DNA of 64,000 nt. Source: an uncultured delta proteobacterium (GTDB lineage Bacteria > Desulfobacterota > Desulfomonilia > Desulfomonilales > Desulfomonilaceae). The position numbers were made by a program, and so were the translations under genes. How positions within the stretch are numbered: the stretch's first letter is position 1; each line of letters begins with the position of its first letter. Of the stretch, positions 921-7,101 are shown piece by piece. The stretch covers positions 1,056,001-1,120,000 of the forward strand of contig CAWBKB010000003.1 of assembly GCA_963789265.1 (NCBI GenBank). The letters are read 5' to 3'. The notes under the pieces are model-generated. The model ran no database searches and was not told the DNA's origin. It worked only from the letters and a program-made list of their open reading frames with translations.

Positions 921-2660
921 ATGATCAAATCAAGAATCAAAGCCGAGCGCAGTGATGCAAATCTGAGTTCTTATGACCAAGCTTACCGATCTTTCTCATG
1001 GGCCAAGGTGGAAGAAGAGTTCGCATGGAATGATTCAAATCTTACGAACATAGCGTTTGAGGCCATCGACCGTCATGCGCTGGATAGAGCGCATATCAAG
1101 GCTTTAGTCCTGGAAAAGGCCGGGAAGACCCAAAGCTTCACCTATCTGGATTTAAGAAGGATTTCTTGCCAGTGGGCCAATCTGCTTTCCCGTTATGGTT
1201 TGACCAAGGGCGATAGGTTATTTATTTACCTTGACCCGTGTCCCGAACTATATTTCGCCATGATAGCCTGCGCCCGCATGGGAGTGGTGTTCTGTCCGCT
1301 TTACCCCACGTTGGTTTTTGACGAACTTGAAGACCGTATTCGTAACGCTACGCCGACAATCATATTGACGCATCCGGACCTGGCGGAGAATCTTCCGCCC
1401 GAAGCAATGGCCGACGTCGAACATGTCCTACTCACAGAAGGCCCCACCCCAGGGCTTTTCCGAGGCGAGGCGATTATCGAAAACCTGGTTCAAGAGATGC
1501 CGGATGAATTCGAAACTGTGTGGGTCGAACGAGAGGCGCGGCTTTACCTTCTCTATACTTCCGGATCCACCGGACCCCCTAAAGGAGTGGTGCACTCCCA
1601 CCAGGATATGCTGGGACTCAAACTAACTGCCAAATACGTGCTTGAGCTGAATGAGGGCACCTTATTGTGGACCGATGGGCATCCTGCGTGGGTGTTGGGT
1701 ACGACGTACGGCACGTTTGCGCCCTGGCTGTGTGGAGCAACATCAATAGTCATGGCTGATCCGTTCTCGGCGTCTAGCTGGTATCGCACACTGGAAAAGC
1801 ACAAAGTCGAGGTATGGTACACTACTCCAAGTCGAATCAGAAGACTCATGGATGCAGGGGAGGATCTGCCTCCAAGATACGACTTCTCAAATCTGCGCCA
1901 TATTTGTACCGTCGGTGAGGCACTCGGGCCGGAGTTGTTCCACTGGGTCCGCGGTAATATAGGCTTGTCTCCACACGACACATGGTGGATGACCGAGACC
2001 GGTATGATATGCCTCGCCAACTTCCCGTCAATGGATATCAAGCCGGGATCAATGGGAAAGCCGGTACCTGGAGTGGAAGCTGCAATAGTTTCTGAAGACG
2101 GCGAGAAACTTCCCATGCTCACATTGGGCCAGTTAGCCTTTAAGCCCGGATGGCCCGCCATGATGAAAGAGATATGGCAGGACAAACTGAGATACCGGGC
2201 ATATTTCCGACTCCCCGGCTGGTTCCTGACCGGTGATATGGCCATTGTCGACGAAGATGGATATTTCTTTCATCAAGGGCGCATGGACGATCTTATCAAG
2301 TTCGGCGAGAAAATTGTCGGCCCCTATGAGATCGAACAGGTTCTTTGTAGACATCCTGCCGTGCATGAAGCTGCGGTAATTTCCAAGGAAGTTTCTCCGG
2401 GAAAATCTTCACTTAAGGCGTTCGTAACAGTGTCGGAAGGCTTTACACCGTCGATGCGGCTACGGCATGAAATCAGGGCCTTTCTCAGAAGTAATCTTTC
2501 TTCCGCAGTACAGTTGAATGAGGTTGACTTCATCAGCGAGCTTCCCAAAACACGATCCGGTAAACTCTTGAGGAGGGTTTTAAGAGCGCGTGAGTTAGGA
2601 CTCCCTGAGGGTGATTTATTGGGCTTACAAGACGAGCCTTTTTCCGAACACGAAGCCTGA
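921..2660 (+). CDS. acsA: Acetate--CoA ligase, Bacillus AcsA-like type
   Basis: YTSGSTGPPKG, VGEAL, DTWWMTETG, GWPAMM, PKTRSGK motifs; ATG at 921 chosen after a GGGAG RBS-like motif (ORF track begins 861). Confidence 0.85.
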   Translation: MIKSRIKAERSDANLSSYDQAYRSFSWAKVEEEFAWNDSNLTNIAFEAIDRHALDRAHIKALVLEKAGKTQSFTYLDLRRISCQWANLLSRYGLTKGDRLFIYLDPCPELYFAMIACARMGVVFCPLYPTLVFDELEDRIRNATPTIILTHPDLAENLPPEAMADVEHVLLTEGPTPGLFRGEAIIENLVQEMPDEFETVWVEREARLYLLYTSGSTGPPKGVVHSHQDMLGLKLTAKYVLELNEGTLLWTDGHPAWVLGTTYGTFAPWLCGATSIVMADPFSASSWYRTLEKHKVEVWYTTPSRIRRLMDAGEDLPPRYDFSNLRHICTVGEALGPELFHWVRGNIGLSPHDTWWMTETGMICLANFPSMDIKPGSMGKPVPGVEAAIVSEDGEKLPMLTLGQLAFKPGWPAMMKEIWQDKLRYRAYFRLPGWFLTGDMAIVDEDGYFFHQGRMDDLIKFGEKIVGPYEIEQVLCRHPAVHEAAVISKEVSPGKSSLKAFVTVSEGFTPSMRLRHEIRAFLRSNLSSAVQLNEVDFISELPKTRSGKLLRRVLRARELGLPEGDLLGLQDEPFSEHEA

Positions 2661-2828
2661 CGGAAGGGCCGAGGCACTTCTACTCCCGATTCAGACTCTC
2701 ACCTGCAGCGTCTTTCCGGGCAAGAATTGCGTACAGTGCCGGCAATACCAGCAGCGTTAAGGCAGTACTCGAGATCAATCCACCGATGACCACGGTAGTC
2801 AAAGGTCCTTGCACCTCTGCTCCGGTTC
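2511..2828 (+). repeat. Imperfect direct repeat, copy 1 (acsA 3' end plus orphan czcA 3' tail on the minus strand)
   Basis: Aligns along its full length with 6785..7101 (CAGTTGAATG...GCTCCGGTTC vs CAATTGAATG...GCTCCGGTTC). Confidence 0.95.
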
Positions 2829-2888
2829 GAGGTGTTCAGGAGGCAGATATTTGTTTAATCTGCCGATTTCCCCAATGTGAAAGAGCTC

Positions 2889-3132
2889 CTATACTTGCTG
2901 GATGATCTTGTTTTCACCCGGATGGTCGCGATAGCTGCAGGTGTTGACGATCAGGTTCACACTCGAAAGATTCACTGCCAAGTCCCTGATAAGTTTTTTC
3001 AGTCTCGGCGGATCCGGAGACATACGCGGTGTCTAAGGGGACCGGTTCTGGCGAGCGATAAACAAAATGATTACCATTGAGGTAACCACCTTCCAAAACG
3101 AACAGGTCCTCCAATATCTCTACTGCGGTCAT
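2889..3132 (-). pseudogene. Degenerate N-terminal remnant of an MBL-fold metallo-hydrolase
   Basis: MTAVEILEDLFVLEGGYLNGNHFVYRSPEP..LDTAY, a frameshift in an A-run near 2995, then LIVNTCSYRDHPGENKIIQ (decayed THxHxDHxGGN motif) and a stop. Confidence 0.6.
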
Positions 3133-3181
3133 ACAACACCCATCGAATAGTTGAGAGCAATTACGTGATAGCGGCAGCCTA

Positions 3182-5027: not shown

Positions 5028-5453
5028 CTATTTCTTCCGGACTTCCATTTTGACATCCATGACGATTCGCACCCAGCTTTCGTATTCCAACCAGCCGTCA
5101 AAGCATCCAGTCCTCTTCAATTTCATTTCATCGGCGTCCATTTCGGCATAAAGCAGCTCGTTCATTGCGATGCCGCGGACTTGGAGAGCAGTCACAGCGT
5201 GAATGCACATCCTTTTGGGGCAGAGCTTTGAGATAAGGGTGCCCCTGTTCAGGTAGAACTTGTCGCGCAGTTTTTGTTGGCTATTGCAACCGAGGGATTC
5301 CTGAACTTCCGCTACGATGGTCTTATTCATGAGCTCGGGAGCTTTCACGAGGATGTCAGCGTCCCCCGGGTCGCTTTTGAAGAGTTCCATCTCCTCATTC
5401 GAATATCTCGGATGGTTCCGGGCGACTTCCCACACTTCGTTGTTCATTTCCAT
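5028..5453 (-). CDS. Second TIGR04076-like hypothetical protein, possibly degenerating
   Basis: AEVQESLGCNSQQKLRDKFY and LCPKRMC align with 3182..3607, but DVGVDCSGYG is replaced by DGWLEYESWV. Confidence 0.6.
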   Translation of the reverse strand: MEMNNEVWEVARNHPRYSNEEMELFKSDPGDADILVKAPELMNKTIVAEVQESLGCNSQQKLRDKFYLNRGTLISKLCPKRMCIHAVTALQVRGIAMNELLYAEMDADEMKLKRTGCFDGWLEYESWVRIVMDVKMEVRKK

Positions 5454-5766
5454 CGGCCTCTCGGCCTTCAATAATCTCAACACCGACTGTAACCCCTGCA
5501 ACAAGACGATTCTGCTCCTGAACGGATTATTGCTGCGGGTGGACGGATTCTCGTGTTTATCATGCCTTTAATTGTCGGCTCAACTCGGCTCGAAACGCCG
5601 TCCATCAAGAATTCGTGCGCCACGCGGACGAATTTATGGTAGTTAGCGCGGCGAGGCCGTGGTATGCTCGAACCTGTTCTTGGTGATCAGAACCGAAGCC
5701 GAATGTTTAGCCTGTCGTGATTCGGTCGCGAAAGATTTCGACCGCAAACTTGGCCGACCGGAGGCA

Positions 5767-6795
5767 ATGATGACGGAACTCCTGTCAAGAATGCTCGTTA
5801 CCCGCGCCAACGCAGAAGAGTTCCGAACCCAAATCGGAGCCCTATTCGGTCACCTGGCTAAAGACGTGACCGAGGTTTCCATCGTCGCCGAGGGGCCGCT
5901 GTTCAGCGGCAAATTGGAGGTGCATCCTGTGCGACCGGGCCTGCGGCTTTTTGCGATGAACGTGGAAACACAGCGGGACCTCCAACTCAATGTTGCTCCG
6001 GTAAATCCGGGCGTCTTTTTTTCTCTGGTCCTCAATGGCCGTTCCGAGTACACTGTGCAGCGTCCGGCGGGATGTCATGATCAATGGGAATTTCTCCCCG
6101 GCCGGAACGTCGTAGGAACTTTCCAGCCGGAAGAGTCGCATTGGAAGGTGTCCGCGCGGGATTCTCACCGCTTGGTGGAACTTCATATTGCTTCAGGTAG
6201 AGCCTCGCAGCTCCTTTCAGAATATCTCGAGTCAACACCGGGGCACATAAATCCCGTTATGGCCCAATCCAACGCCTTCCCCAGACATATCCAGCAAGCC
6301 CTCACGCCTGAACTAAGGATCGTTGCGCACCAGGTCCTCAACTGCCCGCTGGAAGGATCCGCAAAGCGCCTCTTCATGGAGAGCAAGGCGCTGGAAATCC
6401 TGGCCCTTCAATTGGACACGCTCTCATCGTCAAATCCGAGAGAACGAGCCAAGCGAACCAAAGAGGAACTCAAACGCCTTGAGGAGGCCCGGAGAATCCT
6501 CGACAAGGAGTTCGCTGATCCTCCGTCACTACTGATGCTGGCTCGTCGTGTGGGCTTGAATGATTTCAAGCTCAAGCGCGGGTTTCGAGAGGTCTATCAC
6601 ACCACCGTCTTCGGCCACGTCCGGATGCTCAGAATGGAGAAGGCTCTGAATATGCTCGAAACCAGTGATTTCAACGTAAGCGAGGTTGCTGTTGCCACCG
6701 GATATACGTGCTTCGGCCACTTCTCCGGGGCCTTCCGCAAGAGGTTTGGCATCGCTCCTCGAGACTTCAAGAAGGGACGACGGTCAATTGAATGA
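5767..6795 (+). CDS. AraC family transcriptional regulator (PchR/YbtA-like)
   Basis: C-terminal LARRVGLNDFKLKRGFREVYHTTVFG...VSEVAVATGY..FGHFSGAFRKRFG; GGAGG RBS. Confidence 0.9.
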   Translation: MMTELLSRMLVTRANAEEFRTQIGALFGHLAKDVTEVSIVAEGPLFSGKLEVHPVRPGLRLFAMNVETQRDLQLNVAPVNPGVFFSLVLNGRSEYTVQRPAGCHDQWEFLPGRNVVGTFQPEESHWKVSARDSHRLVELHIASGRASQLLSEYLESTPGHINPVMAQSNAFPRHIQQALTPELRIVAHQVLNCPLEGSAKRLFMESKALEILALQLDTLSSSNPRERAKRTKEELKRLEEARRILDKEFADPPSLLMLARRVGLNDFKLKRGFREVYHTTVFGHVRMLRMEKALNMLETSDFNVSEVAVATGYTCFGHFSGAFRKRFGIAPRDFKKGRRSIE

Positions 6796-7101
6796 AGTTG
6801 ACTTCATCAGCAAGCTTCCCAAAACTCGATCCGGTAAACTTCTAAGGAGAGTCTTAAGGGCGCGCGAGTTGGGTCTTCCTGAGGGTGATTTATTGGGCTT
6901 ACAGGACGAGCCTTTCTCAAAACACGAAGTCTGACGGAAGGCGGCGGCACTTCTGCTCCGGATTTAGATTCTCACCTGCGGCGTCTTTCCGGGCAAGGAT
7001 TGCGTACAGTGCCGGCAACACCAGTAGCGTCAAGGCCGTACTCGAGATCAATCCACCGATGACCACGGTAGCCAAGGGTCTTTGCACCTCAGCTCCGGTT
7101 C
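6785..7101 (+). repeat. Imperfect direct repeat, copy 2 (orphan acsA 3' tail plus functional czcA 3' end)
   Basis: Encodes [49 protein letters not shown], 46/49 identical to the AcsA C-terminus. Confidence 0.95.

Follow-up and report, generated by a model that had tools for sequence, protein, structure and literature searches.

A four-gene cassette between two diverged copies of the acsA/czcA gene-end junction in an uncultured member of the Desulfomonilaceae

The 64,000-nt window analysed here, taken from the genome of an uncultured delta proteobacterium of the Desulfomonilaceae (assembly GCA_963789265.1, contig CAWBKB010000003.1, positions 1,056,001 to 1,120,000; hereafter G000), carries a four-gene cassette, K, between two direct repeats, C1 and C2, which are diverged copies of the junction (J) at which the convergent genes acsA and czcA meet. 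Each copy comprises the last 49 codons and the stop codon of acsA, a spacer of ~20 nt and the last ~48 codons of czcA in antisense orientation; C1 completes acsA and C2 completes czcA, while the remaining halves are orphans. In the closest species, G001 of the same genus, a single junction occupies the site and K is absent. Judged by the predominance of synonymous differences, the conclusion holds that the spare halves still belonged to working genes while they diverged. On balance, K appears to have entered by homology-driven insertion-duplication, i.e., through recombination of the resident junction with a foreign, K-linked allele of it.

Repeat structure, empty site and cassette content

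A sequence-only reading of the window had placed direct repeats at 2511..2828 and 6785..7101, each with the acsA 3′ end and the antisense czcA 3′ end. Repeat search and alignment confirmed these coordinates, and the gene content was as claimed (Table 1). Over 318 aligned columns, which also serve as junction positions below, C1 and C2 differ at 36 (89% identity); the single indel, of 1 nt, falls in the spacer. The repeat search resolved them into two adjoining families, 2511-2667/6785-6941 (88%) and 2667-2828/6940-7101 (90%); the copies are spaced 4274 apart in the first and 4273 in the second. Repeat ends are sharp on both sides, neither orphan has lost its open frame, and the longest tract of identity (34 nt) is followed by one of 26 nt. 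A repeat of such length and identity cannot have originated by chance. No third junction copy was found in the 6.06-Mb, 9-contig genome.

Table 1. Coordinates of the junction repeats, the cassette, the flanking genes and the border-bridging contigs in the window
Feature	Position	Strand	Length	Description
acsA	861..2660	+		AMP-forming acetate-CoA-ligase-like; intact; last 49 codons and stop inside C1
Repeat copy C1	2511..2828		318 nt	Working acsA tail (2511-2660), spacer, orphan czcA tail
Orphan czcA tail of C1	2683-2828	minus		TAG stop kept at 2680-2682, as in G001
Longest C1/C2-identical tract	2765..2798 (C2 counterpart 7038-7071)		34 nt	Junction positions 255-288; putative crossover site
Cassette K	2829..6784		3,956 bp	Four genes; absent at the G001 empty site
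141-aa protein	3182..3607	-	141 aa	Weakly TIGR04076-like
385-aa protein	3855..5012	-	385 aa	C-terminal 2x[4Fe-4S] ferredoxin domain; uncharacterised
158-aa protein	5028..5504	-	158 aa	Paralogue of the 141-aa protein (35% identity); weakly TIGR04076-like
AraC-family regulator	5659..6795	+	378 aa	Pfam HTH_18; last 3 codons and stop inside C2
Repeat copy C2	6785..7101		317 nt	Orphan acsA tail (6785-6934; frame open), working czcA tail (6917-7101)
czcA	6917..10241	-		CusA/CzcA-family resistance-nodulation-division (RND) pump; reads as two open reading frames (ORFs), 6917-8326 and 8316-10241
Bridging contig, X2 record 10	2331-2590
Bridging contig, X2 record 11	2755-2990
Bridging contig, X4 record 30	6524-6881
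Bridging contig, X4 record 31	7009-7178

All four repeat borders are bridged by Logan contigs of 100% identity from two runs, X2 and X4, of one study. A variant strain (record identities 95-99%), in which K is joined to C2 (6538-6840), is represented in runs X1 and X3; over the C1/K border its contig (2800-3637) reaches 29 nt into C1, under the 31-nt criterion for bridging. At 6787 and 6796 the C2 of this strain has the state of C1 and G001, and the copies therefore differ between strains; a private change lies at 6805. Judged from these contigs, assembly chimerism of the repeat structure is unlikely. Word depth in X1 was ~17-30 over K and 9-16 over czcA, with none for acsA at a level of at least 95%, and 6882-7115 was without cover.

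The sequence-only reading had proposed a search for strains with a single junction. The sister species G001 has such an empty site: it is collinear with window positions 2-2828 (90.3%) and 6785-15637 (89.5%), with one 317-nt junction in between. Among 70 genomes of the order, the acsA/czcA junction was found in G001 only; in the remaining five species of the genus acsA is present and homology ends at its stop codon. A scan of species-representative genomes with a degenerate 26-mer junction pattern returned only the G001 contig (L027) and a chance match in an unrelated genome (L026). In G006 (L010), acsA directly precedes the GNAT gene that is found at 12901-13389 of the window (81% amino acid identity), and the czc module (~2665-12882) forms a 10.2-kb indel at the same spot relative to G006, with no repeats on either side. 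The stretch that follows acsA resembles an insertion hotspot.

The cassette resembles its flanks in G+C content (0.50-0.56). Its left, non-coding part (2829-3181) has no paralogue and no notable promoter or terminator. The 385-aa Fe-S protein has paralogues of 71-72% identity on contigs C5 and C7, and atlas look-ups for two of the K proteins returned uncharacterised families only. The DNA of the 141-aa TIGR04076-like gene (3150-3651) recurs on another contig as a 90% copy with sharp ends in an unrelated context (G000:C1:695705-696206, L002); this identity is about the same as that between the two junction copies. Homology of the AraC-family gene to its G023 orthologue stops at 6785, just short of the stop codon of that gene. 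Clusters of K-like make-up are common in the family, at 66-75% DNA identity, and there is no second copy of K in the genome.

Integrase, transposase and recombinase domains (Pfam) were missing from the four cassette ORFs and from 48 further ORFs of the window, together 52 of the 53 listed ORFs of at least 110 aa. The negative scan of the cassette ORFs agrees with the sequence-only statement that no integrase or transposase lies inside. There was no tRNA or tmRNA in 1-14000, no Rfam match in 1-12000 and no inverted repeat of at least 30 nt in 1-12000. With no recombinase gene found and no short identical attachment (att) core, K does not present itself as an integrase-encoding island, an integrative and conjugative element (ICE), an integrative and mobilizable element (IME) or a prophage. 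Nor does it resemble an insertion sequence (IS) or transposon, given that neither a transposase nor inverted repeats of that length were found and that the duplication is 318 bp long and non-identical.

Divergence between the two copies

For the 49 AcsA codons, the sequence-only reading had counted 15 synonymous and 3 non-synonymous codon differences, which is correct (19 nucleotide differences in 18 codons), and it had proposed a dN/dS comparison of the copies. By Nei-Gojobori counting, the acsA tails of C1 and C2 are separated by 16 synonymous and 3 non-synonymous differences, with a synonymous divergence (dS) of 0.77 and a dN/dS ratio (omega) of 0.035; the czcA tails (47 codons) show 9 and 4 (dS 0.27, omega 0.15). 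In the flanks, the corresponding counts between G000 and G001 are 112 and 24 over 1,500 nt of acsA (dS 0.42, omega 0.05) and 40 and 12 for czcA (dS 0.15, omega 0.09). For neutral drift of one copy per half after duplication in place, site counts would predict non-synonymous fractions of ~0.64 for acsA and ~0.58 for czcA. The observed fractions were 3/19 and 4/13 (P = 2e-5 and 0.045; combined 8e-6), and this model rejects the neutral decay of a copy that was duplicated in place.

The distances point the same way. C1 and C2 differ from each other at 36 columns but from G001 at 24 and 23, respectively, and only 5 sites separate a shared C1/C2 state from G001. In-place duplication after the species split is disfavoured, because it would show the opposite distance pattern.

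Each orphan tail also carries two changes at conserved residues. The orphan AcsA tail of C2 has two E to K changes, the first at a position that is E or D in 7/8 AcsA relatives and K in one (P0004). The orphan CzcA tail of C1 has R to G and A to T, within a stretch that reads QRPLATVV in 9/10 homologues. We read these changes as a probable onset of decay since the halves were orphaned.

For the acsA half, states were polarised with five same-genus outgroups, of which at least four had to agree. Six derived states are private to C2 (positions 3, 12, 28, 57, 135 and 136) and six are common to C2 and G001 but missing in C1 (60, 66, 69, 75, 90 and 93); of the others, two are private to C1, one is common to C1 and G001, and none is private to G001. 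Judged by the six shared states, the C2 acsA tail is, in block 60-93, kin to the allele of the sister species and not to the working tail of G000, so that part of C2 is foreign to G000. The verdict of the sequence-only reading, "not a simple duplication that decayed", is thus borne out by the low omega, the rejected neutral-orphan model, the greater closeness of both copies to G001 and the six shared derived states.

In the czcA half, where two more distant outgroups were available, the states suggest C2 to be derived at 215 and perhaps at 242 and 254, and C1 at 289, 298 and 308. The copy with the derived states thus switches from C2 to C1 between positions 254 and 289, that is, across the 34-nt identical tract. 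Because the long-branch copy changes over precisely this longest tract, a single reciprocal crossover probably took place within it (2765-2798 / 7038-7071). The resident allele would then have been C1[1-254] + C2[289-318] and the incoming one C2[1-254] + C1[289-318].

The junction of G001 adds a further layer. It equals C1 or C2 at 35/41 variable sites, and does so in blocks: it is like C1 at 1-57, at 120-136 and mostly at 172-254, and like C2 at 58-93, 146-162 and 289-308. A runs test counted 10 runs among the 35 sites as compared to ~18.5 expected (permutation P = 0.003). Private sites number 5 on the G001 branch, 18 on that of C1 and 17 on that of C2, which is not clock-like. Within the junction acsA half, G001-private derived changes amount to 0/7, versus 22 in 711 nt of the adjoining acsA flank. 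A comparison of three sequences allows two readings: C1-like and C2-like stretches have been combined in the G001 junction, or C1 and C2 are themselves mosaics, reciprocal to each other. Since G001 is a block mosaic of both copies, further exchanges beyond one crossover are implied. Two further possibilities were considered, a crossover at the outermost left end of J and repeated cycles of integration and excision that produce reciprocal mosaics; the three sequences speak neither for nor against them. This mosaic, the decay of the orphans at conserved residues and the altered czcA tail now in use (described below) had been missed by the sequence-only reading.

An apparent drop of G000-G001 divergence at the left repeat border (8/35 versus 0/57, P = 0.0003) was not relied on, as its spans were hand-picked; with equal 60-nt windows it weakens to ~9/60 versus 2/60 (count only). 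A different comparison for the left border, 9/60 versus 0/57, gave P = 0.003, and the right border gave P = 0.14.

Possible routes of insertion

Under homology-driven insertion-duplication, host recombination functions would drive the insertion of a cassette that encodes no recombinase of its own. Entry could have been a Campbell-type single crossover with a circular molecule of J and K, or its equivalent, the import of J-K-J as a module already assembled in another lineage. Because the convergent genes acsA and czcA both end within J, they would stay whole wherever in J the crossover fell, with the displaced ends remaining as orphans, and the same geometry would permit scar-free loss of K. 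The sequence-only reading had likewise proposed homology-mediated capture from a related lineage. The allele-like copies, the foreign ancestry of part of C2, the empty site and the failure to find an integrase support the capture; the integration route is read from the anatomy and would be as outlined.

Campbell-type single-crossover insertion-duplication is used with suicide plasmids and has been described for circular DNA in transformable bacteria. As in that procedure, the insert lies between direct duplications of the shared homology, the copies would each be chimeras of resident and incoming sequence, and recombination between them would reverse the event. The laboratory version, however, works with identical homology, whereas K is natural and its homology is 11% diverged and spans two gene ends, neither of which is disrupted. 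In terms of the expected pattern, the duplication is present and derived states lie on C2 left of 255 and on C1 right of 288, with blocks 58-93 and 146-162 deviating. In this respect the copies are reminiscent of natural transformation, in which, according to the available part of Lombardino et al. 2026 (PMC13344027), single recombination events leave multi-patch mosaics: the short, clustered, discontinuous donor and recipient patches described there resemble the C1/C2/G001 blocks, although they arise by allele replacement and not by insertion with duplication.

Several points weigh against this account. A single crossover is insufficient, and extra exchanges must be assumed for blocks 58-93 and 146-162; the initial linking of K to a junction copy is left unexplained; and gain in G000 cannot be told apart from loss in G001, as the single empty-site genome fits both. 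It is the assembly that places C1 and C2 on a single molecule. No contig that skips K, or circularises it through one J, was present in the four runs, which is a weak negative given their shallow contig data; the assembly, too, holds no circular or otherwise J-linked molecule that could have brought K in. As for a donor, 70 genomes of the order held no close relative of K (best 71-75%), a plasmid search with K gave no match, and one metagenome scan for K relatives via the AraC protein yielded 49 pattern matches, of which 0 were confirmed. The degenerate 26-mer junction pattern had 0 matches in a metagenome scan. Finally, none of eight AcsA sequences (P0001-P0006, P0121, P0122) is a full-length protein with the C2 tail (K at tail positions 10 and 46), and the donor lineage was therefore not found.

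The foremost alternative, which we regard as unlikely but deserving of attention, is a parasitic island of the type of the microcin H47 system of Escherichia coli, with C1 and C2 as attL and attR, a host recombinase acting in trans or a RecA-independent pathway, and reversible excision that leaves hybrid empty sites. As set out in the available part of its description (Azpiroz, Bascuas and Lavina 2011, PMC3191183), the H47 island spans 13 kb, has no integrase and is flanked by repeats of 148 and 144 bp with 76% identity, between which recombination at four identity segments gives hybrid empty sites. Its mobility was demonstrated experimentally and was recA-independent (Azpiroz and Lavina 2017, PMC5426353, available part); the same text reports that excision needed neither recA nor 16 site-specific recombinases of K-12. 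K shares with it the long imperfect direct repeats and the missing recombinase gene, and the empty site of G001 is a hybrid of both copies, as are the attC sites of H47 in the available account (PMC3191183). Against this, the G001 hybrid shows at least five switches and not one, and the contigs of the four shallow runs contain neither an excision product nor a circle. The anatomy would be the same as under insertion-duplication by general recombination, from which this alternative differs in machinery only, and enzymology is not readable from sequence.

The likeness to H47, as far as its available description goes, thus consists in a small chromosomal island without its own integrase, unusually long imperfect direct repeats and hybrid empty sites (here in one genome). 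The K repeats differ in being 318 bp long and 89% identical and in forming the coding 3′ ends of two convergent genes; those of H47 are not described as gene ends in the available part of the source (PMC3191183). Moreover, the K repeats differ from each other mostly synonymously, marking alleles of different lineages, and K is known from sequence alone.

We give less credence still to a one-off capture without mobility, either by homology-facilitated illegitimate recombination, in which a linear fragment would be held by homology to acsA or czcA at one end and undergo illegitimate joining at the other, or by double-crossover import of a foreign junction duplication. Such a capture would suit the sharp repeat ends without a recognisable site, the coincidence of the right edge of K with the very end of the AraC gene, and the repeat-less 10.2-kb czc-module indel at the same spot relative to G006. 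However, illegitimate joining usually deletes recipient DNA and does not duplicate 318 bp of it, and the donor would have to carry K already next to a truncated gene end, whereas both orphan tails seem to have been functional until recently.

Very improbable is an in-place duplication of the junction, whether through an exceptionally long target-site duplication or through tandem duplication plus deletion, with subsequent drift. Its geometry, a direct duplication flanking an insert, would match, as would the two non-synonymous changes at conserved residues in each orphan. It conflicts with the overwhelmingly synonymous divergence, with a C1-C2 distance that exceeds the distance of either copy from G001, with the derived states that C2 shares with G001 and with the lack of a second K copy, which the tandem route would leave. 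Hardly credible at all is an artefact, i.e., a chimeric contig of two strains or repeat collapse or expansion: the genome assembly, in 9 contigs, has 6% contamination and several apparent homopolymer frameshifts, and the read evidence is contig-level, but 100%-identity contigs from two runs bridge every border, no alternative junction was found, and the second strain displays the K/C2 border, if only 29 nt of C1 at the other.

Going beyond insertion-duplication, one may speculate, with considerable doubt, that J is a portable, self-healing attachment module with which recombinase-free J+K shuttles reversibly among lineages of the clade, swapping junction segments as it goes. Such shuttling would explain the block mosaic of G001 as well as the lack of any G001-private change in the junction acsA half.

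Integrase-driven islands, ICEs and prophages that insert into gene 3′ ends resemble K in that they keep the target gene intact by carrying a replacement gene end and leave the displaced one orphaned at the far side. They differ in encoding a tyrosine or serine recombinase and in using a short identical core, whereas for K the ORFs scanned across 64 kb yielded no recombinase gene, no tRNA lies in 1-14000 and the repeat spans two genes. In the literature searched we found no natural island flanked by diverged alleles of two gene ends, though one may still be in print.

Catalogues of mobile DNA mostly rely on integrases, transposases and tRNA targets; K has none of these, yet it shows clean presence and absence between sister species. 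It would provide a natural example of ordinary recombination between diverged alleles that adds genes and leaves both neighbours undamaged, and would add a case from an uncultured lineage of sulfate-reducer type to the E. coli H47 island, the one precedent that is well studied. The event has a readable signature, duplicated gene ends with synonymous differences, which could be searched for systematically and thereby yield an estimate of how much accessory DNA moves without dedicated enzymes.

Flanking genes and neighbourhood

The acsA product matches Pfam AMP-binding and AMP-binding_C and scores 629 bits with NCBIfam PRK04319, under the cut-off of 729. Its database relatives are 579 aa long and start with MIKSR, which corresponds to ~921 in the window; the source name of the closest one is Desulfomonilaceae.

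The sequence-only reading had taken both acsA and czcA to be intact. This stands for acsA, while in the window a surplus C in a C-run at ~8327-8331 breaks czcA into two ORFs, which cover TIGR00914 positions 1-613 and 615-1044. A short-read contig of X2 lacks the base at 8329 and G001 has one C fewer at 8327, and the split is therefore probably an assembly error of the long-read homopolymer kind and not the mark of a pseudogene. Three further split ORF pairs, each of one family, occur at 30148-32098 (sodium:solute symporter), 38501-42056 (SMC) and 19230-21249 (cNMP-binding plus DUF294), and look like additional assembly frameshift errors.

At 6917-6958, in the working czcA tail provided by C2, CAG replaces the TAG stop of C1 and G001, resulting in a 12-codon extension that overlaps the orphan acsA tail by 18 nt. 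Ten CzcA tails read from homologues included no full-length protein with this extension. Since the tails vary freely after LPALY, loss of the stop and the ensuing extension are probably harmless.

Three AMP-forming acetyl-CoA-synthetase-type genes share the window with a histone-deacetylase-family gene, the GNAT acetyltransferase and a Sir2 deacetylase (the set lying at 2-898, 861-2660, 12901-13389 for GNAT, 14386-16350, 26560-28455 and 47365-48156). This neighbourhood of ligases, acetyltransferase and deacetylases suggests that the ligases are controlled by acetylation.

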